DNA of 64,000 nt from Cladosporium halotolerans (taxonomy: Eukaryota): NCBI RefSeq assembly GCF_011745625.1, contig NW_027191452.1, forward strand, positions 1 through 64,000, given 5' to 3'. This document shows positions 19,514 through 35,999 of the stretch, in pieces. Every line of letters begins with the position of its first letter. The stretch's first letter is position 1. The notes under the pieces are model-generated. The model saw only the letters and a list, made by a program, of their open reading frames with translations. It was not told where the DNA came from and ran no database searches. Made by a program: the position numbers and the translations under genes.

Positions 19514-22363
19514 CTACTTTTTCGGTAGATCAGCAAACACCCTCTTGAAAATATCTCTCGACTTGTAAAGATTCACAAGCCTGAACCTCTCGTTGTCCAA
19601 ATGCGCCGAGTCACTCGCTTGGCCGCAAGGGAAGTGTGCCGCCGGCGCGTTGAACTCCTTCTCCAGAAACCTGATGGCAGGAATCGAGCCACCCTCGCGG
19701 ATGTAGAGGGGTTTGCGACGCGGAGCCGGTGGTTGATCGGCAGTCTCGAGGGTCGAGAGCTTGGAAGACAGCTGAGAGGAAAGGTCCGAGGCCGCAGTGG
19801 GGTCCAACGGCGTTGCGACGCTGCCATTGGCGAGTACAGTCGAGGTTGTGGGGGAGAGCTTGCTGGCAAAATAGTCGGCATTGGCTGTGTCTTGCGTAGG
19901 CTGAGGCATCGCGACCTTCAGCGGCAATGTTGAAGATCTTCGACGACGAGACTGATCAATGGGACCCCATGCTTCCATAATAGCTTCTTCAAGCGTCTTG
20001 AAGATCTCATTGGTCCAATCGCCGAGCCAAGGTTCGGCTTGATGGTCAACAGTGACAGTTAGTTTGTTGGTAGACTCAAGCTTATCGAACTGAGAATGCA
20101 GGTATGACTTCAGCGTCTCGGCGACTACGTTCGCTTCTTGGTTGGGTACCAGGCGCAGGGAGAGCGCAACCTTGGCTAATCGAGGAATGATTGTCGCATT
20201 GTCTGGGCCAGAAGTCTGGAATCGATGAATAGTCAGACTTGCTTCTCGCCATCTTCGCATCAAGCTTGCAGCAAGCGCCTTTGGGTCACCGAGGTCTGGG
20301 TTGCGTTGGACGAGCGCTTTTGTAATATCAGCGTACAGCTCGCGTTCCTCGTCACTTAAGTCCGGTATAGGGTCGTAGAAGCCAGGTATCATCACCTTGC
20401 CGTTCTTCCCAGTGAGCATGCTCAGAAGCATCACCAGATCTTTTAGCGACTCGTCCAATTGTGCACTTCCGTCAACACCACTGTGAAGATCGGGATGGCT
20501 CGACTCCACCTGGACTGTCGCGTGAATAACGCCGCGCAGTCCGTACGTCAGGCAAGGTATACGGTCGTCAAGCCAGTAGCTGTTGGCAAGTAAGATCCAG
20601 TCCACGTCACCAATCTGTTCCTTTGCTGATTTAATGGCGGCCTCGAAACCACGCGAGCCGCATTCTTCCTCGCCCTCGATAAGGAAGATGATGTCCGAGT
20701 CGAGTGCTTGTTCACTGTTCAGCTCAGCACAAGCGAAAATGGCGGCCATGATTGGTCCTTTGTTGTCAGACGTTCCACGCCCATAGAGGAAGCCATCAAT
20801 GCCCTCCATGTCGAAAGGGTCTGATGGCCATTTTCCGTTGACATTATCCGCGGCCACAACATCGTAGTGACCGTAGAAAAGAATTTTCTTTCTCTTGTGT
20901 GCAGTAGCTGGGTTGCCCCTGAACCTGGCAAGAATCACGGGATTGTATGGGTCTTTGGTGGGCAGCATCTCTGTTATCGCTCCGAAGTTCTTAAAGACGG
21001 AGCGCAGGTACGATGCACCGCGGCGACAGTCAGCCTGGTAATGAGGATCTGACGAGACTGTGCGATATGAGACAAAGCGGCGAAGGTATTCCAGCATCAT
21101 CTCATTGCTCGTTCTTGAACTGGCGAAAGTCGAGGGGCTGCAGTCACTGATTTCCCAGACAGCCAACGTACTGTCACTGGACCCAGTTACATAGATCGGT
21201 CGGCGGTTGTAGTATGTGAATGCTGATGCCAGAATACGGCCTTCGTGTGCCTTCAACCTGCTCCTGAGCTGGTATTGGTGATCGAACTTGCGGACGAATC
21301 CAGTGACAGCTGCACTGAAGAGGAAGCCACCGCCAACACAGACACTGAGCACATCATCCCTGTGTGCCTTGATGTTGCGAACCAGCTGGTGGGTTTCCAA
21401 ATCCCAGACATCGACTTCGCCGCCAGAGCGTCCAGTGTAAAGAAAGGTGCAATCAATAGCCATTGTAAGGATTGCATGCCCTTCCTCCCTACCGTCGTCC
21501 AACTCATAGAGTGCTTCAATTGCACCTCCGTTCGCATCCAGCTTCCACAATTTCACCATGCCGTCGCCACCGCCTGTGATAAGAACTTCCTGACCACCAG
21601 CTTCTTGCACACCTTCCTTCACCAGCAGCATGCAGTTCACGTATCCATAGTGCGCGAAGTGCATGACGTTCTCTTTCGGTATCTCCAGCGTCTTGCCTCC
21701 CACCGCATGCTTGGGTGTGATGCCAGCATCGGGCGGCTTGGGCGTACTTATGCCTCCGGGTCCCTTGGAGTCGAAGAATGGATCGTCCCGCAGCGACGGG
21801 TGCACCGCAGGCGCTGATGCATCAGACTGGTCTTGATCTGCCAGGCTACACCAGGAGATGGTGGTATTCTGTGCACCAAGATATATGGTCCGCGATGAGG
21901 CTGAATAGGCGACACAGAAGATGTCTCCGACATCGTATGAGGAATAGAGGCAGCACACTCTGGCCAGCGTGCTTGCGCTCCAGACGTTCACGATGCGGTC
22001 TCCGGCGCTGGAGAATAGCAGCTTTCCATCCTCGCTAAGACAGAGCCCAAGCACACTCCCTCTGTGTCCATCGATCACAGCCTTTTTCTCGTAGGTGTCA
22101 AGGCGGAAGACCAGGATCTCTCCGGCTTGCGTTCCAGCATATATGTACTCATCTCCAAGGGCGATGGTGAGAATCGAACTGGTGTGCTTCAAGCGATGGC
22201 TCAGGGTAGGCAGGTTACCCTGTTGGTAGCCGACATCGTGGCTGGGTTGGCGGGAGAGGGAGCTAGCGGGGGAGGGCTGTTCGTCTGTTTCGGAGAGGCT
22301 CCCTGCAAGTTGCGGACGAGGGGTTAGCGATGAGTGCTGGCGGAGGGCGTCGAGCCTGGACAT
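19514..22363 (-). CDS. DUG2: WD40 + M20 peptidase, glutathione degradosome subunit
   Basis: N-terminal WD40 repeats; FYGHYDVV, YGRGTSDNKGP, EGEEECGS, DLHSG, REGGSIP, AHLDNER. Confidence 0.92.
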   Translation of the reverse strand: MSRLDALRQHSSLTPRPQLAGSLSETDEQPSPASSLSRQPSHDVGYQQGNLPTLSHRLKHTSSILTIALGDEYIYAGTQAGEILVFRLDTYEKKAVIDGHRGSVLGLCLSEDGKLLFSSAGDRIVNVWSASTLARVCCLYSSYDVGDIFCVAYSASSRTIYLGAQNTTISWCSLADQDQSDASAPAVHPSLRDDPFFDSKGPGGISTPKPPDAGITPKHAVGGKTLEIPKENVMHFAHYGYVNCMLLVKEGVQEAGGQEVLITGGGDGMVKLWKLDANGGAIEALYELDDGREEGHAILTMAIDCTFLYTGRSGGEVDVWDLETHQLVRNIKAHRDDVLSVCVGGGFLFSAAVTGFVRKFDHQYQLRSRLKAHEGRILASAFTYYNRRPIYVTGSSDSTLAVWEISDCSPSTFASSRTSNEMMLEYLRRFVSYRTVSSDPHYQADCRRGASYLRSVFKNFGAITEMLPTKDPYNPVILARFRGNPATAHKRKKILFYGHYDVVAADNVNGKWPSDPFDMEGIDGFLYGRGTSDNKGPIMAAIFACAELNSEQALDSDIIFLIEGEEECGSRGFEAAIKSAKEQIGDVDWILLANSYWLDDRIPCLTYGLRGVIHATVQVESSHPDLHSGVDGSAQLDESLKDLVMLLSMLTGKNGKVMIPGFYDPIPDLSDEERELYADITKALVQRNPDLGDPKALAASLMRRWREASLTIHRFQTSGPDNATIIPRLAKVALSLRLVPNQEANVVAETLKSYLHSQFDKLESTNKLTVTVDHQAEPWLGDWTNEIFKTLEEAIMEAWGPIDQSRRRRSSTLPLKVAMPQPTQDTANADYFASKLSPTTSTVLANGSVATPLDPTAASDLSSQLSSKLSTLETADQPPAPRRKPLYIREGGSIPAIRFLEKEFNAPAAHFPCGQASDSAHLDNERFRLVNLYKSRDIFKRVFADLPKK

Positions 22364-22920
22364 CGACCGCGACGTGCTCGACACTTTTTATCGGTCGGCG
22401 TTGGTTGTGCAAAAGGTTGGTGTCAAAACGCCAGACCCGGTTTATAGGTCGCGAGCGAAATGTTCCATGGCGGTAAGAGGGTTCTCCAGGATATGATGTC
22501 GCGTGTTTGGGCGCGCCAAGGCGGGGGATGTTTTCGTGGGGAAATGGTAGGGCTGAAAGGAGACGATGCTTACATTCGAATGTTGAGGTGGAGAAGGACG
22601 ATGCACGATGAAAACTTTCAGGAGGCCAATCTTCGCCGCAGTCGCTGCGAGGGACGGTCAACATCGTTGTGTGGTGCATGCGAAGTTCGTGCAGGCGAAG
22701 CAATCAGGCCATGTCCGACCTTCGCACCAGGATGGTGCCATCGCTCGCAATTGATGCAGAGGCCACCGCCGCTCATACTGGGTATATTGTGCTACAACGT
22801 ACAGGGGCAACTGCTGCGGCTGGGAATGAATACTGATAAAGCAGACTCTATTATATCGGGATACGTAAATACTCTACAGCCCGGTGCTCGAGCGTTTCTC
22901 TTGCACATCTTCTTGGAGAC

Positions 22921-23509
22921 TTAGTTGGCAAGCACAAGGACCTTCCTCGCCACGATCAATATCCAAACCTCAAAAATTGCACCTGCCACCCAAAACCCAA
23001 AGACGACATACCAGTCCTCACAGGTCTGTCGCTGCAGTAGCCAAAGCAATGCGTCGAGATTCAGCCCCGTCGAAGACCTGTCGCATTGCTCGATAACAGG
23101 CCCAAACAGCTGGATAGCCGTCCCGATCAGCCCCGTGAGGTAAAGTACGAACATGATGAACGCCTTTAGCATCACAAGGCCAGGGAAGAGACGGCGTGAG
23201 AACGCCAGAAGCAGAATCACCCAGACAAAAGCTTCTGTCAGAGCTCCGACCGTAATGCCGTAGGGAATGATCCTGCACGGAGTGAGATGTCAGCAGTTGC
23301 CAAGATCACCAACAAACAGCTGCGGCTTACCAGGGCGTCCCTAGGCCCAGCGTACTTTGCTGGTTGGCCATCGTGGCGAAGTTCGTAATGAGATACAGCC
23401 CTGCTATGATCATGAAAATTGCCCACGCATACAGCGTGGTTTCTGGCCAGCGATAGGCATGCCGCACTATCACCCGCTGAAAGCTCGTCGAGACTTCTGA
23501 GCGTGCCAT
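22921..23509 (-). CDS. Small 4-TM (MARVEL-like) membrane protein; intron 23273-23330
   Basis: Two ORF pieces joined in frame by a GTAAG..GCTGAC..CAG intron; four hydrophobic segments and Cys residues in the last loop. Confidence 0.75.
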
Positions 23510-24410
23510 GGTCGTGGCGTTGTGCTGGTGGTCGAAAAGTGGTATCTGGCGTCAGGCCACCTGATTCCGGGAGTGCCGGTTCGAGGTTCAAGCGGTTGAG
23601 CTTCGGAAAGTGGAATAGGAAGGCGTCGTCCGGTGTTTTTCCTGTCGGATTTGGCTTCTCATCAAGTTCAGGAGCCCTGTTATCGGTAGATGGGAGTGTA
23701 GTCGAAGTGTGCAGAAGGAGCGGTATCACACTCAATGTCCGACGCAGTCTATCTCCAGCATTCGAGCTACAATGCTGGGGATTCAGCAATGAGAGTCAGT
23801 GGCTGGTACGATCTGTCCCGCGATAGCTCGGAGCTGGTGATCAAAGTTAAGGTTCCGTGCCTAGCGGATGTATATCTTCTTGGTTTGCTACTATTTCCAG
23901 ACTGGGGAATCGCTTGTTTTTCGATAGTACCTGCATCTTTGCGACGCCACAGCGTTATCAATGTTAGTTGTACGGATTCTCCAGAAAACAACGTGCGCGG
24001 AAGCCCGAAGATGCCTTCGTCGCTCTCTGCTTTCGCAAGCGGGGCACGTCAATGTCTCAGACACCTCCAGCCCACCCGCGGTCGACATTGTCTCACCACA
24101 CCAAGGCCACCAAACTATGAGGTCAGTTCCCAACGGCGCGCGTGGGGAGAACCGTTCTTCTCCCACATGCGGCCATCTCACTTCTGCTTGTACGAGCACG
24201 CTGCCGTTCACTTTTCTGGCTCCTGTCTTACATGCAGCGCGCCACATAGCCCCAGAACGCTCCATTCCTGACGTCGAGCTGCGGGCGGTGCCAATGTCAC
24301 CGTGGGATAGACTGAACAAAGTAGGTATCTAATGAGTTTGACGTCCTGTTCCGGCCCTTGATCCGCACTCCCCAGCCCACCGCCCAACCTCCAGCTCTCT
24401 TCACCGCAAG

Positions 24411-25190
24411 ATGGCCCAAGTCGACGCTTACGTTACGCCTGCACGCAAGCCCTATGATGGGAGCGGATCTCTGATCAAGCACCACGATGACAGGTCGCGG
24501 GGTAGGAACGATACCGATATCGTCATCCGTCGGACGCGTTACCGGTCCTATTCTAACGACGAGAAAATCTGTCGCTCCGACGATGACGACCGGAAATACT
24601 GTGTTGAGCGCAAGATCACCTACCGCGATGGCTACGGCAACATCATCAGAATAGTCTACGAAGACTCTTGCGGCAAAGTCATCAGGACTGTGTATCCAAA
24701 GCGGCCCCACCACCACCACTGGAAATGTGACTGTTCGAGCTCCGAGGCAACACGCAAGTGCGTCTGGAAGAAGTACGTCGTCAGAGACAGCTGCGGCTAC
24801 GTCTGGAAAATTACCTGGGTCGACTGCTACGGCAAGACTATGAAGACGGAGTATCCTGAGTGTGGCCCTCCTCGTCGGAGGTGCAGCGACACGAAGCGGA
24901 TTCAATGGAAGGATTGTAGCGACGATGATGTGGAGAGGCGGAGGTACAGCGAGACGAGGAAGTATTACGTCGACAGGAACTCTAACGTGAGGCCCTTGGG
25001 CACTGAAGTGGTCGTAAAGACGAGCGATGAGACTTCCAGTAAGCATTCGAGAAATGACTCTGCTGTTTCCTCGGGAACATCGTCTAAGGACACTGATGAG
25101 GTCGTGGAAAAGGACGAAAACGGAGTCACAAAGAAGGTCACCTACACTGATTCAAGGGGTAGACGAAGGACTGTGGTCTATGACGACTGA
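24411..25190 (+). CDS. Hypothetical Cys/Tyr/charged-rich protein with repeated DxxG beta-hairpin motifs
   Basis: 259-aa ORF with coding-like codon usage and good start context (aagATGG). Confidence 0.7.
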   Translation: MAQVDAYVTPARKPYDGSGSLIKHHDDRSRGRNDTDIVIRRTRYRSYSNDEKICRSDDDDRKYCVERKITYRDGYGNIIRIVYEDSCGKVIRTVYPKRPHHHHWKCDCSSSEATRKCVWKKYVVRDSCGYVWKITWVDCYGKTMKTEYPECGPPRRRCSDTKRIQWKDCSDDDVERRRYSETRKYYVDRNSNVRPLGTEVVVKTSDETSSKHSRNDSAVSSGTSSKDTDEVVEKDENGVTKKVTYTDSRGRRRTVVYDD

Positions 25191-25450
25191 TGGGGGTTTT
25201 GCATTCTGGGCAATCATTGTTTAATGTCGTTACGTGTGATGGATTATTTCGGTGTATGCAGTAACATTATGAAACCACGTTCTCCCTGCCTTGCCTTCAA
25301 CCAGAAATGAACCCAACCCATAGTCACTCCAAGGCCCTTCACCCACAGCTCCAGAGGCCACAGAGTCTTCGGTCAAAATATGACAACGGTAGAAAAAAGC
25401 TAGCAGCGGATCTCGACACCCGCAAGACTGCATTCAACGACCAAAAGATA

Positions 25451-25548
25451 TTCCGACGCGGGGAATTGAACCCCGGCCTTGTCGGCACTGATCCCGAATC
25501 GAATCGAAGATTGAGAGCGACAAATCCTAGCCACTAGACCACATCGGA
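25451..25548 (-). tRNA. tRNA-Glu (CTC) with 26-nt intron (25486-25511)
   Basis: Acceptor stem TCCGATG/CGTCGGA, D arm TGGTCTAGTGGCTAGGA, anticodon arm TGTCG-CT-CTC-A^C-CGACA, T loop GGTTCAATTCC, downstream TTTT. Confidence 0.95.
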
Positions 25549-25997
25549 AGTGAAATACGTATTTCGATGAGGAAGCGGCGTTCTATTGTGTACTAATAAC
25601 TCATCTAGTTGTGTACCAGTAGCTGCACGTCGAGAGGGAGCGGTTTGAGCTTGGGATGGCCTCGAAACAGCGGCCTTTCTCGGTTGCAAAATGGGTTTGC
25701 GAGTTCACTCCACTTCACTTCAATTGCAGTCCCGATTCGGAAAGAGCGACCGGTCATGCCTCCCCCCGGAGTGAGGATGCTGATGAAAAGCGAGAATCGT
25801 AGACACCGGTACACGCCCGGAGGTAACGAGATGAGCTCGGGATTGATCATGGTCCGTTGAAATGTCTATTTCCGCCATGACTACGTAGGCACATGTGATG
25901 GATTCAATTGTAGATGCCGTACCAAAATTGCAAACTCCATCAGATGCTCTTGCGAACAAGTACAGAAATCTATAATCACACACGACAGCCAAGATAC

Positions 25998-27101
25998 TCA
26001 ATCCTGGAACAAGAGCCCGGCAGCATACTCCACATTCCCACCAGTGCTATTCAACGCCGCCACCGCCTGTTGCTGACTGAACCCCAAATCCTGCAGTGTC
26101 TTTACACTCTCAGCCGGAAAAGGGTGCTGGGGGGGCGGCAGTTGTTGCGCGGGCCCTCCCATACCATACGGTCGTATGGGTACCTGCTGCCGAGGCGCAG
26201 TCGCAGGCAACGGCGTCCGCAACACTCTGCCCATATTCGCCGCCCACTCCCACGGCCTGTCGGATCCGCCAGGCAAGGCGTTGAAATACTCCCAGCCCAT
26301 GACGCCGCCGAAGTTCGGATACTTCGTGCGTAGCGTCCGGAGAACGTTCTCCATAGTAGCCCAAGGTACGTGGCCAGCGCCATTCGCAGGATTCGTGACA
26401 AGCCCCATGACCACTTTGTCTGCGCGCCAGCCGAGCCCGATGATCGCGTCGTACCATGCTGTCGTCGAGGGGTCGCCCCAGCCGCAGTAGAATTGGGTGT
26501 TGTACCAAGCGATTTCGTAGCCACGCATCTGCTCCAGCAGACTATACTGGATCGGGCCGGAGAGATGAGGTTGGTTCGGTAAGAGAGCTGTGGCGACTGG
26601 TGCAAGAGTGATGAGGAAGCTGGGGCCGAAGTCCGCTCGTAAGCGGTCGATGAGGCGGATTGCGCCTGTCAGGGACATGGGTTCTTCGATGTCGAGGTCA
26701 AGACCGTCGAACCTGTGCTTTCGCAACATATCGCGGAGGGGTATGTATTGTGCCTCGAAGCGCTCGTGGTCGGCTCCGTCCAGGCGCTCGTAAGAGCCTT
26801 TCGCGGCGCCACCGAGCATGCCGAGCACTTTCACGCCGCTGGCTTGGAGCCATGCCATCTCACCGTACAAGAGCCCGAACTTCTCGTGCTCAGGGTGGTC
26901 ATCGTTGAGCGTGATGTTGCCTGGACCTTCGTTCAGATGGATTGCGGCGACAATGACGTGTGTGACGCCGGTGTTGTTGGTGATGAGGGGTAGCAGCGAG
27001 ACTGGAGGACCATTATTGGGGCCATGGTGTGTTTGGTGATATACCACGACCTTTGACCCTTGCCCAGGAGGCAAGAGCTGATTTGGTTGACCGGCAGACA
27101 T
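25998..27101 (-). CDS. Cytosolic GH18 endo-beta-N-acetylglucosaminidase-like protein with C-terminal UBA domain (5' end uncertain)
   Basis: VVYHQTHH, THVIVAAIHLN, LGGAAKGS, FDGLDLDIEE (GH18 catalytic), WYNTQFYCGWG, GVMGWEYFN. Pro-rich linker, then LQDLGFSQQQAVAALNSTGGNVEYAAGLLF. Confidence 0.88.
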   Translation of the reverse strand: MSAGQPNQLLPPGQGSKVVVYHQTHHGPNNGPPVSLLPLITNNTGVTHVIVAAIHLNEGPGNITLNDDHPEHEKFGLLYGEMAWLQASGVKVLGMLGGAAKGSYERLDGADHERFEAQYIPLRDMLRKHRFDGLDLDIEEPMSLTGAIRLIDRLRADFGPSFLITLAPVATALLPNQPHLSGPIQYSLLEQMRGYEIAWYNTQFYCGWGDPSTTAWYDAIIGLGWRADKVVMGLVTNPANGAGHVPWATMENVLRTLRTKYPNFGGVMGWEYFNALPGGSDRPWEWAANMGRVLRTPLPATAPRQQVPIRPYGMGGPAQQLPPPQHPFPAESVKTLQDLGFSQQQAVAALNSTGGNVEYAAGLLFQD

Positions 27102-27566
27102 TAGCCAGGTTGTCTGGCACCGAAGCAGTGGAAAGTTGAATGACAGGCAGGTGCTGGCTGAACGTGCAGGAAGTGGGGCAATTCTGGGAGGCCTAGCGGA
27201 CACGATTGCAACAACATCGTCCGCGATAGGGCAGTCTTTCTCTAGAAAATCTTGTTGTTCCGATTAGAGCTCTGAACAGTAGGAGTTCAAAGCTGTCTAT
27301 CTACATTTGGACGATATAACTGGTGGTCGGAACAAGCAAGATCGTAAACTCAGTCATCAAGCCCCGAGTATCAAACAATATCAATACTCGCAGCGACCCT
27401 TCGCGAAGGAAACAATCAGACGATAAGGGACGACTCAAGACCTAACACTCAGACCACCACCCATCCTCACCACGGATCATCCATCCATAAATCAACCTAC
27501 ACTCCACCATCACCTCCAAGACTCCCACACCCCCGTCACGACACGCCAACCCACACCACCCCAACC

Positions 27567-28268
27567 ATGCCCTCCATCCGCCCCGTCTCCCTCCCCACCG
27601 ACCACGCCGCCCTCGACCACATCTTCCGCACCACCTCCGGCCCCTCCTTCAAGCCCGAGCCCGCCGCCACAATCTCCTCCCACCTCTTCTGCCACGCCTA
27701 CGCCGCCCTCGAACCCCGCACCTCCCTCGTCCTCGTCGACTCCTCCAACACCCCCGTAGGCTACATCCTCGGCACGCCCGACACGCGCGCCTTCGCGTCC
27801 CGCTGGAAGCGCGAGTACGCCGCGGGCCTCGACCTGGCGGGCATCGCGCGGCCGCCGGACTACGCCGCGCAGGGCCTGCCGCGGCCGGCGGACTTCGAGA
27901 GCAGCCTGCTGGACCTGCTGTTCAACTCGCCGGAGGAGCTGCTGAACCTGCACGTTCCCAGCCGTGAGGAACCGCTCGCAGGGACGTGGGGGGCGCACTT
28001 CCACGTCGACATCTTGCCGGCGTACCAGCGGCAGGGGTGGGGGGCGGCGATGGTGGAGGAGATGTGTGGGGCGCTGAGGGCGGGGGGCGCGAGGGGGGTG
28101 CATTTGGGGCTGGAGGGGCGGAATGAGGGCGCGGCGAGGTTTTATGCGCGGATGGGGTTTCGGCGGGCGGAGGTTGTGTTGGATGGGGGGGCTAGTGGGG
28201 AGGTGGGGAGGATGGCGGGGGAGAATGGGACGGTGTTTATGGTCAAGGATCTGGTTGAGGGCGTATAG
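27567..28268 (+). CDS. GNAT family acetyltransferase
   Basis: VGYILG, AHFHVDILPAYQRQGWG (acetyl-CoA motif A), GVHLG, NEGAARFYARMGF. Confidence 0.9.
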   Translation: MPSIRPVSLPTDHAALDHIFRTTSGPSFKPEPAATISSHLFCHAYAALEPRTSLVLVDSSNTPVGYILGTPDTRAFASRWKREYAAGLDLAGIARPPDYAAQGLPRPADFESSLLDLLFNSPEELLNLHVPSREEPLAGTWGAHFHVDILPAYQRQGWGAAMVEEMCGALRAGGARGVHLGLEGRNEGAARFYARMGFRRAEVVLDGGASGEVGRMAGENGTVFMVKDLVEGV

Positions 28269-28386
28269 AAAGGTGGAGATGGAAGATCATCGAGACGTGC
28301 GACGGTCATGCTTCGTGTGGTTTTGCCCTAATGCTCGCTGAACGCTCAAAACAGAATGCCGAAAAGGGAATGCTTTTTTTTTGTGT

Positions 28387-30702
28387 TCACCTGATACCGC
28401 CCTGAAGGAATGTGTTTACCGCGCCCATCCTCCTCGACTCTTGCGAAATCCTCATGCTGTCCTGGCTGGGACGTATGCCGCTAGCACCCTGTCCGCGACG
28501 TCCCGTTACGCCAGTCGCCGCAGCAGGCGTGAAAGCCTCCCAAGCGCTGCTGATGCCTTCCGGCACAGATGGCGAGAAAGTGGTGTCTTCGGGATAGAGA
28601 CGCTTGCCGTCCAGCTCCTCCTTGCGAGCGTTGCGGAACCCGGCGGCTTCGGTGTCGGAAACGGTGACGCTGTACGTAGGGTTCTCAGAGCTGCCGACGG
28701 CTGCGTCGTTGCCGCCCGGCGGGTCAATGGGAATGCGGCGCATGGTCGCTAGCAGTTCGCACATGAACTTGTTGCGGCGGATCTGGCGAAGGTGCTCGTT
28801 GGCGAAGTTGGACTGCTTGATGTTAGCGGTTGCATCTCTTGGAGATGGCTTCACATATTCTCTCACCTTGTGCTTGATCTCAACCCTCAAATCAAGCTGC
28901 TTCATATCGCCCAGACTGATCAACTCAACGTCAATCTCATTCTGGAAATCGCGCTTATTCTCCGGCGCCTGCACGAACTTCTCCAGCTCTCCCCTCAGCG
29001 TCAGGATATCCGCATTGCTCGTCGCAGCGCAAACGCTGAAATTGTACTGCTCCTTCATCGACCTGCTGCGCGACACGTTCTCGATCCAGAGGGTGTTTGC
29101 GATGTTGTGCGGGATCTGCACGGTCTTGTCGGAGTCGATGCGGCGGAAGACGGAGTACATGAGCGAGATGCGCTCGACGACGAGCTGGACGTCCTTGATG
29201 TCGACGCGGTCGCCGACGTCGTAAGGGTGCTTGACAAAGAGGAAGATGATGCAGGCGAGGAACTCGGTGACGGTGCCGCCGATGGCGAAGGCGAGACCGG
29301 TGAAAGTCGTCCAGAGTTGAGTGGCTCTGCTGGCGAAGGCCTCGCTGAAGAAGGTGGCGTAGATGAGAGCGATGGCGATCAGGACCATGAAGCTGAGGAT
29401 CTTGTCGAGAACGCCGATGGCGTGGCTGATATCTTGCATGCTGGTGGCTCTGTTCTTGCGCTCTTCGCCGAGGCCGACGACGAGCATTGTCATTTCTTCC
29501 ATGCTGACGTCGCCGTTGCCATCGCGATCGAGAGCTGCAAAGATGACCTCCGCCTCGCTGGCTCTGTTCGTACCGCGAACCTCAAGCAAGTCATTCTTCA
29601 GGAGAACGTCTCTACTATCACCGACGAAAGAAAGCCAGAGTCTGCGCGCAAGAGCCTTGGAGCCACGCTCCGTCTCCAACGCCTCGACGACGACAGAATG
29701 CGCGCTTGTAGTGCTGAAAACTTCCTTTCCAGTAATATCCGAAGCCATGACACCAAAAGCAGCGGTCACCTTGTCGCGCGCGCGACCCATATCGTTGAAG
29801 ATCTTGGTACCAACGCCAGCTTTCGCCATCGCCTCTCGGACCTCGTGCAGAGTGTTGCCCTGAATCTCAGCATCTTCGAGCATGAACTCCCTGCAGTATT
29901 CCGGGAACAGGAGGCGGGAAGCGTCGTACAATAGGTCAAGCAGCCGGATCAGCTTCTTGTTCTCCTTGATCTTCTCATTGTACTGCTTTCGATGGTAGTT
30001 GATGCTAATGAGCTGGATGAGGGTCTTCTCCGCGAGGAAGATGGCGGCGACAATTATGCCGGCTTTGAAGACGGTCTTGAGGTTCCTCAGCCAAGTGGTG
30101 TTGCAGGTGTCGCCGAAAGTGCAAATGACGCCCGTGGTGGCGAACGCGACGATGGCCCAGAAGAGAAGCGAGATCGGGACTTCCAGAGCAGCGAGCACAA
30201 GCGAGTACTTCCTGACGCCCGTGCTGATCAGACCGCAAGCAGCTTGAAAGACGAACGGCACAGCTTTGGCGAGCAGCTTGCAGACCCAAAGCGCGACCCA
30301 GAGCACCTCGACCCAGACAAAGATACCAAGCAGTCTGACTTCGCCGACCTTGTGGTTCTTCCAGACCGTGCGGACGAGGATGATCGGCACCGCCAGCAGT
30401 GCCGCGACCGGGAGGATGTACAGGGCGTAGCGGGTGAGGATATTGGTGCTGTGGATCTTCCAGAGGAAGTTGCCGACCTTCGTCAGCGTGTCTTCTTCCT
30501 CCTCGTAGGGTTTGGCCTTCGCGGCGGCGTCCATGTTGCTGTGGGTCGTCTTTCTGCGGCCCAGGACGGGACGCTCGCTGGGCGAGTCCATGGAGGTGAC
30601 GGTCACATTGGCCTTCTTGCCGCCGGACTCGAGGTCGGCGAGGAGGATGGACTTGGCGCCGGTTGAAGGCGTGCTGGGGTTAGAAGAGGCAAGGAACGAC
30701 AT
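28387..30702 (-). CDS. MscS-like mechanosensitive channel with EF-hand (Msy1/Msy2 type); intron 28813-28866
   Basis: Several TM segments, EF-hand DRDGNGDVSMEE, IFLFVKHPYDVGDRV, WIENVSRS, RRNKFMCEL. Confidence 0.92.
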   Translation of the reverse strand: MSFLASSNPSTPSTGAKSILLADLESGGKKANVTVTSMDSPSERPVLGRRKTTHSNMDAAAKAKPYEEEEDTLTKVGNFLWKIHSTNILTRYALYILPVAALLAVPIILVRTVWKNHKVGEVRLLGIFVWVEVLWVALWVCKLLAKAVPFVFQAACGLISTGVRKYSLVLAALEVPISLLFWAIVAFATTGVICTFGDTCNTTWLRNLKTVFKAGIIVAAIFLAEKTLIQLISINYHRKQYNEKIKENKKLIRLLDLLYDASRLLFPEYCREFMLEDAEIQGNTLHEVREAMAKAGVGTKIFNDMGRARDKVTAAFGVMASDITGKEVFSTTSAHSVVVEALETERGSKALARRLWLSFVGDSRDVLLKNDLLEVRGTNRASEAEVIFAALDRDGNGDVSMEEMTMLVVGLGEERKNRATSMQDISHAIGVLDKILSFMVLIAIALIYATFFSEAFASRATQLWTTFTGLAFAIGGTVTEFLACIIFLFVKHPYDVGDRVDIKDVQLVVERISLMYSVFRRIDSDKTVQIPHNIANTLWIENVSRSRSMKEQYNFSVCAATSNADILTLRGELEKFVQAPENKRDFQNEIDVELISLGDMKQLDLRVEIKHKVREYVKPSPRDATANIKQSNFANEHLRQIRRNKFMCELLATMRRIPIDPPGGNDAAVGSSENPTYSVTVSDTEAAGFRNARKEELDGKRLYPEDTTFSPSVPEGISSAWEAFTPAAATGVTGRRGQGASGIRPSQDSMRISQESRRMGAVNTFLQGGIR

Positions 30703-31454
30703 GGCGAGTGAGTATTGGAGTAGCGCCGGGCTACTGCTGAGATGTGAAGGGCAGTAATTGTTCTGTGCTCAAGCAAACGCAACGACAGGGAAGGAGGAAA
30801 GAGAGACCGGCAAAAGAGTGAGCGCGGTCCCACAGATGCAAAACGCAGCAATGCTGGGGATGGTATGAAGAAGCACGAGAATCGACGTGCTTGGGATATT
30901 GAAGGAAGCCATCGTCAAGGCATGTCCACGCCTTGCGCTTGGACGCGTCTGGCCACGCCGTTTTTCATATGTTTCGCGGCGCGCGCGCGCCCCTCCTGGC
31001 GCCGGCATGTGGCGCCCAATGGCTGCGCGGGAGCGCAGGCGATTGGCCGGTGCCTGCAGATGTTGAGCTTCACCGCAGTAGGTAACAATGTGCTACAATG
31101 CACTGCGTGTGCAGGCACAAGAGTAGCTCTGACAGCGCATACGAAGAAAGCGCTATCAGCTGCGATTGTTCTTCGTATTGTAGAGCAGAAACAGCCAGAG
31201 CAGCCAGAACAGGCAGTGAAGTCTAGATTAGCAGCTCGCCTCCAAGCGTTTGCTCGCTTGTCTGGGGTTCTGCGGGAGGCGGCGCCACTCCACGCGTCCG
31301 CGCCGTTAGCTGCGCAAAAGCGGGCAAGGCCAGGTCAACCTGAAACGCAGGCCGGGCTGAACAGCAAACGTGGGTATCATTTCTACATGTGGCCTAAGGT
31401 ATCATTCCAGCACGCACGTCAGAGTGCACCGACTTATCCTACAAGGGTCCGGCC

Positions 31455-34400
31455 TCACTTGCCTCTCCCGACGCCCTTCACACCGCCCAGCACCCTCTCC
31501 GTGCTCTCGAACGCCCTGTCCAGCTTCGCCAGCGCCTCGGCCTTCTGCTTGTCCGTGACCAGCTTGTCGCCCAGCGGCAGGTCTCGCAGAGCGTTCTGCA
31601 TGAGCTCGGCCGCCTTCTCTGCAGTCGTCTTCGTCGTCGCCGGCAGCCGTGGCTTGCTGACCCCTGCGCCTGTCGCCACTGCAGAAGCAGAAGGGAAGCC
31701 GCTGTTCGAGCCGAACGCCGAGGTTCCGTGAACGTTCGCGGGCTCCTTGCGCCGCAAGCCCACTTGGCCTCTGCCGTCCATGAACGTCTCGTAGCCGTTA
31801 GTGTCGAGGACTTCGCGGGGCACGTCTTCGATGGCGCCGAGAGTGACGGCGCCGCCTTGGAGATGTCTCACGCCTGCCATCTTCTTAATCACGTTGGCGT
31901 TCTCCTCGCACCCTTCGACCGCGAATCGCAGACACATGATGGCGTGCTCGCGGATGTAAGGGTTGTGCTCGTCGTGCCTGCAGCAGCCGACGAGAGCCTC
32001 CAGCCCGCCGTACTCGCGGACCTGATCCTGCACCATCCGGTTCTTCCAGATCAGTGACGACAATACGAGCACAGTAAGCTTCTTGAGGTTGCGCCATTCG
32101 AAGTCCGAAGGCTCATCTTGAGCATCCTCGGGGTACGCGAGCGGCGTCTCCGCCTCGAAGATCTGAGACTGCGGCTGTGGCGGCGGCACCGGCAGGGGAA
32201 GAGGTGGCAGCGTCGGGTCAGGGACGTCGACGTCAAACGGCCTTTCCACCGCAACGGGAGCTGGACTCTGCGCGGGCTGACTGGGCACACGTGCGTCTGC
32301 AGACGAGGCCCTCTGCGGGATCTGACCTGCTGGCGCGCTGACCCGCCTGGTTGGGATGGGCTGCATCATGTTGGCAGCGCCCATCTTAGGAATGCCTCCC
32401 TCCAGCTCGCGCAGGAGCGTGACCAGCTCAGACGCGATCTCCCATCCGCCCAGGATCTCCTTCCACACGCCTTCCTCCGTAAGAACCGCGAAGAACTCCA
32501 GGTACTGATAGACGCCCTCATACATGCGTTCCATGTCCCACAGATTAAGCGGAAAGTCTTCAGGCGAGGCGCGGCCCATGTGAATCTGCCCTTGTAGGAA
32601 GATAAGCGCGCAAGTCTGCGGGATGATGTGCTGACGGAACTCCGTAAAGATGAAGTTAAGGATGTGCAGATCGACCCTCTGCGGCACGTTCGGCGGCAGC
32701 GGCGTGCCCGAACGCAGGGTGAGAAGCGTTTCGACGTCGACCATCGGCACCGGCGTTGACAGGTCAGCAGCAGCGGCAGCCTTGTTGCCCTCGCTTCGGG
32801 CGCGGAAAATGTTGGTCAGAAGCTTCATGATGACGGCCTGAGCAGGGGATATTATGTCCTTGCTCCGTGATCGGTCACGGAAGGCGTGGTACGCGTATGG
32901 CATCAGGCCGTTCTGCAGGATGGCCTCCATGATCTTAACCATGAATTTGAAGTAGAGCTCTTCTTCTCTGAGGTCCCATGCTGCGACAAAGATCAAGAGT
33001 TCTCGAAGTAGATTGCGACCATTGTCCTGAGCTAGGAGCAAGTGGCATCTCACGGTATGCATGTTAATCAGAGCGTTGCGCTCTTGCTGTGACTTGCATT
33101 GCGCCAGCTGATTTGCGGGTGGCACAATGCCGCTCATGACGATCATCGGCAGGACCTCGATCTCACTGGGACCCAGGATGAGGGGCACATCGGTGAGCAA
33201 GCCTCGACCGTCTTCAGTCGACCCAGGGTACTCTTCTTCTTCGTCAGCTTCCTCCTCTGATTCTTCCTCTTCCTCTTCCTCCTCTTGCTCGCTTTCGGAG
33301 GTCAAGCTCTCCTCATCGAATGTCTCGGAGTCCAAGAGCGCGCTCCTCAAGCGCGGTTTTGGCTGACTAGGCGGAAGGCGAGGGTCGGAAGGGTGAAGAC
33401 GTGGAGGGCTACGACTCATGGTACGCGTGCGTTCGATCGGATTGCCGACCATATCCGTCTGTTGCGGTCTGGTATTGAGGCCATCCGGGTGCCTGCTGGC
33501 TGGAAGATTAGGATCAGGCGGCGGTGGTGGTTCGTACCCTTCCAGTCGCTTCATGAGCTCCGATTTCCCAGACTCCAGTATCTTAGTACCAGCATCCGCA
33601 GTGAATAGCATTTTCAGATCGTCATGGTTGATGGGCCGGGGTTGAGCACCCTGCTCAGTCCAGTTTAGCGACCCATCGTTCTCGTAGACACCAGGTTCAA
33701 TGGGTGCAACGCTCGGCGTCTCGCCTTTATAGCGCTCTGACAGCACCTCCTCTAGTTGAGCTATCCGCCTTTCTGCAGTTTTGCTGTGTTGGGAGTTGTC
33801 AGCAGCTCGGGCTGCAGCGCGCTGCTTCTCGGCTGCCAGTGCAAGTTTCGCCTCGAAGACCTTAACGTCTGCCAGATATTTCTCCTGAGCATCTTCGTAC
33901 TTTCGCTGATAGTGCATCTTTGCAGGGGGGTCCAGCTCCATCCATCTCCGCGGCATGTCCAAATGCACTTCTGCGTATGTAGGATCCCGCTGATATGTGT
34001 CTAGGTACTCCTCCACGCAAAAGTCGAGATTCCTCTTGACGAAAAGCACGTATCCGTTCGGCGTCATGGTTTTCCTGCCTTCTTCCACCTCTTCAGGCAT
34101 GGGTTTCCAGTCATCTTTCATGAGCGGCACAGCGCCTTCCAGCGTAAGCGTTTCCTCGCCATTTGTGCCATAAGCCATCAGCATGTGACGCTTGGTGACA
34201 GGGGGTTCGGGCTCTCTGGTGGGGTTCGAGGGAATATCCTTCAGACCAGTCGAAGTCGTGTCGGGTATATCCTCAGGCGCAAGGACAGTCTCAGAAGTGC
34301 TGTCGAACAAGCTCACCCAGAGCATAAGCTTCCGTCGCTCATTTTGTGCCACCATGTTGTTGAGGAACTGCAAGCTCGTGATGAGCAACTTCTTATACGC

Positions 34401-34970
34401 GTTCACGATCCACTGCCACTTTTCCTCCTCGCCTGTTCCTGCGTCGCCGTCATACCCCCGCGCCGTCACCCTGACAGCGCAATTCACCAGCTTGAACACC
34501 TCCTGTTCCACGCTGTGCTCGGCCGCGAGATCCTGCGCTCGGTCGCCCACGGTGAGCACATTGCGACTAATAGAGATCAGATCGTTCAGCCTTTCCAGAT
34601 CTTTCCACAGCCCAGGGTAGTGGCTCGCAATCAGCGCGCCGCTCGTGCTTTCATAGTCGACACTGGTCGGATCCCAGATGGAGAAGCTCCTCCGTTCAAG
34701 ACTGGTAATAGCAGCCTTGAAGAGCGCGACGAGCTCCGACCAGAACTTCGGATCCGTGCCGATGGCTTCCCTGATCGCAGGGTTCTGCGCCGTGCCCCTC
34801 AGCGTCTCCTTGCAGACCTTCTTGTCCAGAAGCTCCAGCGTGCTTTCCTTCATGTACTTGGGCGCCTTGAAGTGGATTGCGTAGGGCGGGAGAACCAGAC
34901 GGACGAAGACGCTGTGCGCCTTCGCCGCTTTCGCCGGGTCGTCTGCGTCGCGGGCCATATTGAAGCCCAT
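31455..34970 (-). CDS. Ataxin-10/Ctr86-like ARM-type protein with an internal HMG-box-like segment
   Basis: C-terminal VQDQVREYGGLEALVGCCRHDEHNPYIREHAIMCLRF is the ataxin-10 signature; acidic tract; start at 34970 or 34958. Confidence 0.85.
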   Translation of the reverse strand: MGFNMARDADDPAKAAKAHSVFVRLVLPPYAIHFKAPKYMKESTLELLDKKVCKETLRGTAQNPAIREAIGTDPKFWSELVALFKAAITSLERRSFSIWDPTSVDYESTSGALIASHYPGLWKDLERLNDLISISRNVLTVGDRAQDLAAEHSVEQEVFKLVNCAVRVTARGYDGDAGTGEEEKWQWIVNAYKKLLITSLQFLNNMVAQNERRKLMLWVSLFDSTSETVLAPEDIPDTTSTGLKDIPSNPTREPEPPVTKRHMLMAYGTNGEETLTLEGAVPLMKDDWKPMPEEVEEGRKTMTPNGYVLFVKRNLDFCVEEYLDTYQRDPTYAEVHLDMPRRWMELDPPAKMHYQRKYEDAQEKYLADVKVFEAKLALAAEKQRAAARAADNSQHSKTAERRIAQLEEVLSERYKGETPSVAPIEPGVYENDGSLNWTEQGAQPRPINHDDLKMLFTADAGTKILESGKSELMKRLEGYEPPPPPDPNLPASRHPDGLNTRPQQTDMVGNPIERTRTMSRSPPRLHPSDPRLPPSQPKPRLRSALLDSETFDEESLTSESEQEEEEEEEESEEEADEEEEYPGSTEDGRGLLTDVPLILGPSEIEVLPMIVMSGIVPPANQLAQCKSQQERNALINMHTVRCHLLLAQDNGRNLLRELLIFVAAWDLREEELYFKFMVKIMEAILQNGLMPYAYHAFRDRSRSKDIISPAQAVIMKLLTNIFRARSEGNKAAAAADLSTPVPMVDVETLLTLRSGTPLPPNVPQRVDLHILNFIFTEFRQHIIPQTCALIFLQGQIHMGRASPEDFPLNLWDMERMYEGVYQYLEFFAVLTEEGVWKEILGGWEIASELVTLLRELEGGIPKMGAANMMQPIPTRRVSAPAGQIPQRASSADARVPSQPAQSPAPVAVERPFDVDVPDPTLPPLPLPVPPPQPQSQIFEAETPLAYPEDAQDEPSDFEWRNLKKLTVLVLSSLIWKNRMVQDQVREYGGLEALVGCCRHDEHNPYIREHAIMCLRFAVEGCEENANVIKKMAGVRHLQGGAVTLGAIEDVPREVLDTNGYETFMDGRGQVGLRRKEPANVHGTSAFGSNSGFPSASAVATGAGVSKPRLPATTKTTAEKAAELMQNALRDLPLGDKLVTDKQKAEALAKLDRAFESTERVLGGVKGVGRGK

Positions 34971-35999
34971 GAGGGATGTTGTGTGATGTGCTCGGTAGTC
35001 TCTGGTGTGGTATCGATGTTCAGCGGCCGCCACCGGGCCCCATTGTATCTGTGTTGCGCCGGCAAGTCCGTAGGCCCGCAAAGTGATCAAGGTCGAAGTC
35101 GGGCTTCGGACGTCGTCTTGGCACGCTGAAGGGTGATTGCCCGCACTCTGCAGGAGCGATGGTACGAACTCACGTCCCCCCAATACTTCTCCTGTCAAGA
35201 GATCACGTTATCGCGAGAGACATAGTTGTATCTTGGATGGTTCGGATATCGAATAATCTTGGGGTCCCGTCTTGAGGTGCGCTGGGAGTATAACCCCAAC
35301 CCTAACCCGAATAGCCCCAACCGCATTATGACATTCGACTCATGCTGCTACTTGTAATCACCATTTGCTGCTTTAAAGTTCGACATTCTGTCGAATATCA
35401 TTGTATCATCGCAGCTTATTATATATCTCTTATACTTGCTAGTAGCATGCATGATCGTATCGTTGAACCCTAAGCTGCTGGAATGTCAAACGGATGTAAA
35501 AGTACACACCAAGACACCTCTCGATTAATAAAAGTGGCCACATGCTGGCAGCTCCTTCAAGAATCATGGCCCATGGTCGCCAACAGAAACAGGGCTAATT
35601 CCAAAAGTCAGGATGCTGTCCAAAATATACACCACTATTACCAAGAAGCGACGCTTTTTGCTGTCATACGAGATTTCTACCGACATCTTAGGACAAGACC
35701 CTCAAGCTTGCGAACGAGAAAGATCGGCAAGATAGCGAAACTACATTATGCCCTAGCATTCAGGCCCCTACCTCTCAATCTCCCGGTGTAAACGGCCAAT
35801 TTGAGGAAACATTCATGTAACCAGAAGAAGTGATAGAAGGAGGCCCAATGAATTTTCTTGAATACATATATTTTATAGCAGTTAATCCTCCACCTAGCTC
35901 TCGCGTCGGCCTACAACACCGCAAGACCATCACAATCTCACCTTCCTCAACACTGCCACCCACTCCAATGTAATCTAGCAAGACGGACTAGTCTCGAAT

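Follow-up and report, generated by a model that had tools for sequence, protein, structure and literature searches.

Fusion of a GH18 domain of the endo-beta-N-acetylglucosaminidase type to a C-terminal UBA domain in Cladosporium halotolerans and other Dothideomycetes

Cytosolic enzymes that remove N-glycans are recruited to the ubiquitin/Cdc48 machinery, through the Png1-Rad23 pair in yeast and through the PUB domain of the peptide:N-glycanase (PNGase) and p97 in mammals. In Neurospora crassa, according to the accessible text of a preprint (bioRxiv 10.64898/2026.03.25.714127), the cytosolic PNGase PNG-1 is enzymatically inactive, and an endo-beta-N-acetylglucosaminidase (ENGase) of family GH18 has been proposed as its stand-in in filamentous ascomycetes. 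The same text reports that the Neurospora enzyme gh18-10 deglycosylates RNase B and restores the degradation of RTL, a reporter of endoplasmic reticulum-associated degradation (ERAD), in png1-delta yeast. Both gh18-10 and Eng18B of Trichoderma have experimental links to deglycosylation and ERAD, as far as the accessible parts of the preprint and of the Eng18B paper (PMC3346758) go. We describe here a gene that encodes a protein of this kind ending in a UBA domain. It lies in a stretch of 64,000 nucleotides of Cladosporium halotolerans (contig NW_027191452.1), analysed as a whole and referred to as the window. The fusion of a GH18 ENGase with a UBA domain is genuine, and with it a known enzyme takes a form that is so far uncharacterised.

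The gene is a single uninterrupted open reading frame on the minus strand (27101..25998) encoding 367 amino acids. It is contained in a stop-to-stop frame (27263..25998, minus strand) in which 27101 is the first ATG, no in-frame ATG being present upstream of it. Homologues aligned over 95-100% of the 367-residue protein, and at E <= 1 Pfam found in it only families of the GH18 and UBA types, with no match to a UBL or to any further domain. The features of the gene are the following.

25998..27101, minus strand: complete single-exon coding sequence, 367 codons plus stop (open reading frame list, translation)
26217..27056, minus strand: GH18 (beta/alpha)8 domain, residues 16-295, predicted fungal B5 ENGase type (Pfam, Protein Data Bank matches, AlphaFold2, Foldseek)
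26685..26708, minus strand: catalytic motif D132-G-L-D135-L-D137-I-E139 (alignment to 4ac1)
26127..26216, minus strand: flexible linker rich in Pro, Gln and Ala, residues 296-325 (block means of the model confidence of 57-74, low conservation)
26001..26126, minus strand: C-terminal UBA domain, residues 326-367 (Pfam PF00627, Ddi1 match, AlphaFold2)
26000-25998, minus strand: stop codon of the gene (open reading frame list, translation)

Pfam Glyco_hydro_18 (PF00704) matched residues 18-169 (E 1.7e-9; 38.2 bits for a cut-off of 29.6). The AlphaFold2 model of the whole protein, built with 76 sequences, reached a mean predicted local distance difference test score (pLDDT) of 91.6 and a predicted template modelling score (pTM) of 0.84, with a TIM barrel predicted at residues 17-294, mostly at pLDDT values above 90; both the barrel fold and the profile score thus place the domain in the GH18 family. 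The DxxDxDxE signature is present as DGLDLDIEE at residues 132-140, intact as the preliminary description of this locus had read it, and D135, D137 and E139 were invariant across 76 homologues. The best sequence match in the Protein Data Bank (PDB) was AfChiC of Aspergillus fumigatus, deposited as "chitinase ChiC" (2y8v, E 3.6e-100; 57-58% identity to the catalytic domain), whose deposited chain of 290 residues comprises the barrel only. It was followed by Endo T of Hypocrea jecorina (4ac1, E 2.9e-78), and the remaining GH18 chains, chitinases included, matched at E 3e-8 or weaker. With the full model, Foldseek ranked the same two structures at the top (template modelling (TM) scores, normalised to the target, of 0.91-0.93; for 4ac1, TM 0.93, root-mean-square deviation (rmsd) 1.4 A and 47% identity). 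True chitinases came after them in the list at about 20% identity, and every match belonged to GH18. As described in the accessible part of the Endo T paper (PMC3408457), D129 and E131 are the catalytic pair of that enzyme and Y195 is a conserved tyrosine that contacts the substrate. In the 4ac1 alignment these residues correspond to D137, E139 and Y205 of the window protein, and Y205 was also invariant in the 76-sequence alignment. The domain is therefore nearer to the proven B5 ENGases (Endo T/Eng18A/Eng18B) than to chitinases and keeps their tyrosine, and by these comparisons the catalytic domain is assigned to the fungal ENGase type and not to the chitinase type.

The protein's N-terminus, MSAGQPNQLLPPGQGSK, is hydrophilic and contains no hydrophobic stretch. 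A Kyte-Doolittle window heuristic, which is not a dedicated predictor, flagged no signal peptide in the window protein, in line with the preliminary description, while the same heuristic did flag signal peptides in Endo T-like proteins. Lacking, by hydropathy, a signal peptide, a transmembrane segment and a glycosylphosphatidylinositol signal, the protein is predicted to belong to the cytosolic branch of these enzymes.

To place it among fungal ENGases, we used a tree of the GH18 domains of 95 near-full-length sequences, consisting of the query and representatives of clusters at 50% identity (IQ-TREE quick search, LG+G4, with Shimodaira-Hasegawa-like approximate likelihood ratio (SH-aLRT) support only). 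The query was found in a clade of 35 sequences (SH-aLRT 95) that holds all eight sequences with a clear UBA, as well as all three Sordariomycete sequences flagged for a tail of the form F(E/D)YxSD. The Endo T-like sequences, with signal-peptide-like starts and a "DYLGM" tail, formed a separate clade (SH-aLRT 96). The backbone of the tree is without resolution, and gain and loss of the tail are indistinguishable from it. With the Purpureocillium protein among these Sordariomycete sequences as seed, a homologue search listed 120 proteins, several Trichoderma species included. Three of the four Trichoderma proteins examined carry DGLDLDVE at 127-134, SLGG at 138-141 and NLS at 174-176; the fourth has DGLDLDVE and NLS, and only SLGG is missing. 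The same positions have been published for T. atroviride Eng18B (PMC3346758, accessible part), and through this agreement the clade can be linked to Eng18B. Tree and motif positions together identify the window gene as the Dothideomycete orthologue of the cytosolic ENGase that is called Eng18B in Trichoderma and gh18-10 in Neurospora, enzymes to which the preliminary description had already pointed, and ENGase activity of the window protein is predicted from its orthology to gh18-10. The window protein resembles Eng18B and gh18-10 in its GH18 clade, catalytic motif, absence of a signal peptide and size of the catalytic domain. It differs in that a single GH18 module was reported for Eng18B (PMC3346758, accessible part), whereas here a linker of 30 residues and a UBA are added. 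Endo T (Eng18A), which has the catalytic Asp, Glu and Tyr in common with the window protein, is by contrast a secreted enzyme of the other clade, with a signal peptide, a C-terminal peptide that is lost on maturation, and no UBA.

That the gene might encode an ordinary chitinase, its UBA being unrelated to glycoprotein turnover, was considered because the databases mostly name the homologues "chitinase", as is the case for the nearest structure deposited. We regard this as very improbable: Endo T is far closer by sequence and by structure than the characterised chitinases, the protein has no signal peptide by the heuristic and no chitin-binding module by Pfam, and its clade contains Eng18B/gh18-10, of which gh18-10 is an active deglycosylase (bioRxiv 10.64898/2026.03.25.714127, accessible text).

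The tail that sets the window protein apart, FPAESVK...LLFQD, occupies residues 328-367 (26001-26120). It matched the Pfam UBA family (PF00627) over residues 330-361 with 29.4 bits for a cut-off of 22.4 (E 6.9e-7); UBA_7 scored 20.2 bits, under its cut-off of 27. In the full-length model the tail forms the three helices of a UBA (330-338, 343-352 and 357-366; pLDDT block means of 83-92), and the loop after helix 1, L339-G340-F341, has the (M/L)-G-(F/Y) form. Loops of this LGF type contact ubiquitin in UBA domains. When the last 47 residues were searched alone, the UBA of yeast Ddi1 (2mr9) was matched at E 9.8e-9; the 40 residues aligned take in the "FP.E" lead-in, the LGF loop and "AA.LLFQ", and the next matches, the UBA domains of USP13 and USP5, were far weaker (E 4e-3 to 9e-3). 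A single-sequence AlphaFold2 model of the tail alone reached a pLDDT of 83.8, and with this 47-residue model Foldseek again placed the Ddi1 UBA in the top row (TM 0.78/0.82, rmsd 1.6 A, 49% identity). UBA and UBA-like domains made up the ranking, among them the S. pombe Mud1 UBA and the Dsk2 UBA-UBL complex 2bwe; no row reached E <= 0.001, as expected for a tail of such size, and the ranking and TM-scores were used instead. An ESM Atlas search with the tail, GH18 clusters excluded, returned generic UBA clusters only, at 0.76-0.79 for a lead level of 0.9. The position of the domain is also that of the Ddi1 UBA (2mr9/2mro), which is C-terminal in its own protein, and the PDB ranking suggests that the UBA may be of Ddi1 origin. 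Ddi1 joins its UBA to a UBL and a retroviral-type protease, whereas the window protein joins it to a glycosidase and has no UBL. Since the N-terminal UBL that defines shuttle factors of the Rad23, Dsk2 and Ddi1 kind is absent, the window protein is not one of them. The yeast Ddi1 UBA binds ubiquitin, with a Kd of 43 uM by isothermal titration calorimetry for an RVP-UBA construct (PMC5028754, accessible part), and ubiquitin binding of the tail is predicted by homology to it.

Conservation argues that this match is not due to chance. Mean pairwise identity over the 76 homologues was 0.66 for the GH18 domain, 0.66 for the UBA and 0.35 for the linker, so that the tail is conserved as strongly as the catalytic domain, unlike the stretch that joins them. 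Within the loop, L339 was kept in 72 of the 76 sequences, G340 in 76 and F341 in 72, and G340, L350, G355 and A360 were invariant. Differences between strains pointed in the same direction: those listed within the UBA coding stretch fell at third codon positions in five cases out of five, and in the linker four of nine fell elsewhere, these counts covering the listed differences, beside which there are 41 further ones. The tail is under purifying selection. A Pro/Gln linker followed by a terminal Ddi1-like UBA, as set out in the preliminary description, is thus what the locus encodes.

The same description had taken the tail as part of one gene, and this stood up to comparison with sequence from other strains. 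Four public runs of closely related strains yielded contigs that were colinear with the gene, with zero joints or indels. One of them, a 656-nt contig of run X4 (a run whose coverage is limited to 25933-27078), spans 25933-26588 and so starts in the 3' flank, crosses the UBA and the linker and ends in the barrel. These contigs support a coding, unspliced tail; all the runs compared are typed as RNA by guess only ("RNA?"), and what they support is therefore the structure of the gene and not its expression. A gene-model artefact, in which two genes would have been joined or the tail would be spliced out or untranslated, could appeal to the fact that no run on record as RNA stands behind the model. 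We find it hardly credible, given a frame that is single and uninterrupted, the colinear contigs, the third-position differences in the tail and the recurrence of the same architecture in many homologues, as follows.

In a homologue search with the window protein, 1856 of 8000 scored proteins matched at E <= 0.001, and the best 120 were listed. PF00627 was precomputed in 86 of these 120, and a hidden Markov model (HMM) of the family tail matched 117 of them, a figure that is partly circular since the HMM was built from 76 of the same proteins. A taxonomy look-up of five names from these 120, given below, returned Dothideomycetes in every case, as it did for Trichodelitschia (Phaeotrichales), named among the cluster representatives.

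Neophaeotheca: Dothideomycetidae
Parastagonospora: Pleosporomycetidae
Bathelium: Trypetheliales
Aulographum: Aulographales
Coniosporium: incertae sedis

The remaining organism names among the best 120 we take to be Dothideomycetes, and two entries of the nr database labelled Quercus suber are probably contaminants. In a scan of 144 of the 150 best representatives at 50% identity (the six longest being left out because of their size), PF00627 was found in 15, 13 of them over the cut-off, and those with names are Dothideomycetes. Neither PF00627 nor the tail HMM matched any of the 120 listed Sordariomycete orthologues. In a further search seeded with Ascosphaera, PF00627 appeared among the 120 listed proteins only in that of the Dothideomycete Hortaea, and the tail HMM matched none of the 102 scanned (101 new ones plus the Ascosphaera query, P0144), which include Aspergillus, Penicillium, Talaromyces, Coccidioides, Exophiala, Xylariales, two lichen fungi, Orbiliales and Coemansia. 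The Eurotiomycete orthologues listed are proteins of 304-330 amino acids with PF00704 only and no match to the tail HMM. Judged by these domain matches, the fusion occurs across Dothideomycetes, and among the ascomycetes surveyed the UBA is a property of that class, the sampled Sordariomycetes and Eurotiomycetes being without it.

The tail also has divergent relatives. Six representatives carry one that the family HMM detects (iE 6e-7 to 1e-4) and in which Pfam finds no UBA, and in all six the Phe of the loop is replaced (KGA, LGA, LGV, AGA, LAR and LGV). Those of Atractiella rhizophila, a basidiomycete (P0153), and of a Cercospora paralogue (P0185/P0271) are full-length proteins with classic signal-peptide-like starts, and that of Drechslerella (Orbiliomycetes) is full-length without such a start; the remaining three are fragments truncated at the N-terminus. 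One more relative with a signal-peptide-like start (P0192) shows a UBA-like tail by eye that the tail HMM does not see. The tails of these paralogues share a conserved N-x-T, which would form an N-glycosylation sequon if the protein is secreted. The tree nests the group that bears signal peptides (SH-aLRT 100) within a clade (SH-aLRT 97) that contains six UBA sequences, and because of this nesting export is suggested to have come second. We read the divergent tails as the outcome of an export that arose secondarily, after which the loop that contacts ubiquitin decayed, and such a decay would give indirect support to a cytosolic ligand of the intact tail.

These proteins bear most directly on the possibility that the tail is a ubiquitin-independent appendage of the subfamily, serving to aid folding, as a propeptide or for intramolecular regulation while retaining a UBA-like sequence. 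The persistence of homologous tails on paralogues with signal-peptide-like N-termini, where no ubiquitin would be met, is the main argument for it, and secreted Endo T does shed a C-terminal peptide of 43-46 residues on maturation (PMC3408457, accessible part). However, the scores of the cytosolic tails exceed the Pfam UBA cut-off and those of the secreted ones do not, the loop Phe is present in 72 of 76 cytosolic tails and in none of the six divergent ones, and the exported clade is nested within the UBA-bearing one, in a quick tree. We therefore hold an appendage of this kind to be quite unlikely.

Building on what is established (the gene, the identity of its domains, the catalytic residues, the lack of a signal peptide, the conservation across a class and the purifying selection on the tail), the explanation towards which we lean, by a modest preference, is that of a cytosolic ENGase bearing, on its flexible linker, a UBA for binding the ubiquitin of retrotranslocated glycoproteins. 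The GH18 enzyme would remove N-glycans from misfolded glycoproteins in the cytosol, and a canonical Ddi1-like UBA, tethered to the barrel by the flexible linker of 30 residues, would capture ubiquitin or polyubiquitin on the same substrates. This capture would raise the local concentration of the enzyme at ubiquitinated ERAD clients, and one polypeptide would then do what the Png1-Rad23 pair achieves in yeast. The proposed logic is the same in the two systems, that of a cytosolic enzyme removing N-glycans and brought to ubiquitinated ERAD substrates, in yeast by way of an adaptor. The likeness would be one of analogy and not of homology, since the ubiquitin-recognition domain is covalently attached in the window protein and the enzyme is a GH18 ENGase instead of a PNGase of the transglutaminase fold. 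The preliminary description had spoken of a possible self-contained ERAD module. The GH18-UBA architecture is as given there, but a "self-contained" ERAD module goes too far, as Pfam finds neither a UBL nor another domain for docking on the proteasome or Cdc48.

Several points weigh against ubiquitin capture of this kind. UBA domains vary widely in their affinity for ubiquitin, and some have other partners. For the window protein, binding and activity are predictions from homology, the ERAD context is that of its orthologues, and expression as a single transcript is likewise predicted, the runs being guessed as RNA. The decayed tail persists on secreted paralogues and may reflect a ubiquitin-independent role, present or past. 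Moreover, the UBA is missing in Sordariomycete and Eurotiomycete orthologues, and gh18-10, which is without it, still works in the yeast ERAD assay, from which it follows that the UBA is not essential for this class of enzymes.

A different use of an intact UBA must also be weighed, namely that it docks the enzyme on UBL shuttle factors, on the proteasome or on Cdc48, or that it acts in cis as a signal stabilising an enzyme that works beside the proteasome against its own degradation. The C-terminal UBA domains of shuttle factors reportedly bind UBL domains and shield their carriers from degradation. The tail of the window protein is at the extreme C-terminus and most like the C-terminal UBA of Ddi1, and the Dsk2 UBA-UBL complex is among its structural matches, all of which would suit such a role. 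The LGF loop and helix 3, however, serve the binding of ubiquitin and of UBL domains alike, so that their conservation separates neither reading from the other. Docking or stabilisation seems to us unlikely, if less so than the appendage discussed above.

The C-termini of sister classes are relevant to the question of recruitment. In 116 of the 120 Sordariomycete orthologues (P0123, P0303-P0421), Eng18B-type proteins of Trichoderma among them, the protein ends in an acidic motif, conserved to a striking degree, of the approximate form DPD...(V/L)PxxF(E/D)Y(Y/H/F)SDG, of which there is no mention in the accessible part of the Eng18B paper (PMC3346758). The Eurotiales orthologues (P0429-P0484: Aspergillus, Penicillium, Talaromyces, Rasamsonia) share a C-terminal "GMKDV..AA..L....SL.NLL.DMMN", a stretch which is not UBA-like by the tail HMM and which, from its pattern, is probably helical. 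Each class thus has its own C-terminal module behind the barrel, and this fits a recruitment role for the C-terminus of the protein; the tails of the sister classes, different but equally conserved, point to recruitment through the C-terminus as a general feature. Extending this, the cytosolic ENGases of filamentous fungi might carry, on a flexible linker, interchangeable, lineage-specific C-terminal modules that dock on the ubiquitin/Cdc48/proteasome machinery (a Ddi1-derived UBA in Dothideomycetes, "VPxxFEYYSDG" in Sordariomycetes and an amphipathic helix in Eurotiales), replacing the Png1-Rad23 link that was lost with the inactivation of PNGase. We put this forward tentatively, as a possible but doubtful generalisation.

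As to the surroundings of the gene, those that flank it encode a GNAT acetyltransferase (27561-28268, plus strand) and an MscS-like channel (28387-30768, minus strand); no functional link to the ENGase gene was seen in either of these neighbours. The frame of the channel, of the MscS mechanosensitive type, also gives a weak EF-hand match. A protein with ataxin-10 homology is encoded at 31455-35207 (minus strand), like the channel gene an ordinary fungal gene with no evident link to the ENGase-UBA gene. About 450 bases downstream of the latter there is a tRNA gene (25451-25548, minus strand; Rfam RF00005, 48.1 bits, E 1.3e-8), which probably holds an intron because it measures 98 nt against a model of 71 positions; although Rfam matches it, ARAGORN at default settings reported no tRNA in 23000-29000. 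Further away, a stop-to-stop frame of 957 amino acids (19514-22387, minus strand) combines a WD40/beta-propeller (residues ~70-420) with a Peptidase_M20 (503-810) and may be a fusion or two adjacent genes in read-through. An open frame of 282 amino acids (24342-25190, plus strand), rich in Arg, Lys, Asp and Tyr and with repeated units of the type "...G..I.IVY.D/..R.VY...", has no Pfam match and may be no gene, because the opposite strand is also open (284 amino acids).

The preliminary description had also known of no characterisation of this architecture. The literature agrees: a full-text search, with subscription-only papers and bioRxiv supplements outside its reach, found no paper linking a UBA to a GH18 ENGase or chitinase, and ubiquitin is unmentioned in the accessible part of the Eng18B paper (PMC3346758), as it is in the accessible text of the gh18-10 preprint (bioRxiv 10.64898/2026.03.25.714127). 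In databases, however, automatic annotation already shows the fusion in Pfam columns, and a UniProt entry bears the name "UBA domain-containing protein".

How the fungal ENGase finds its substrates is left unaddressed in the accessible parts of the gh18-10 and Eng18B literature. For Dothideomycetes, a covalently attached UBA that is conserved like the active site across one fungal class is a concrete and testable answer. If the proposed capture of ubiquitin is true, deglycosylation would be coupled to the ubiquitin tag with no adaptor protein in between, and the fusion might serve as a tool, that is, as an ENGase aimed at ubiquitinated glycoproteins. If, in addition, the C-terminal modules of these enzymes are interchangeable, the UBA form would be the first deglycosylase to read the ubiquitin tag directly, and the decay of the tail in exported paralogues would be a natural loss-of-function control.

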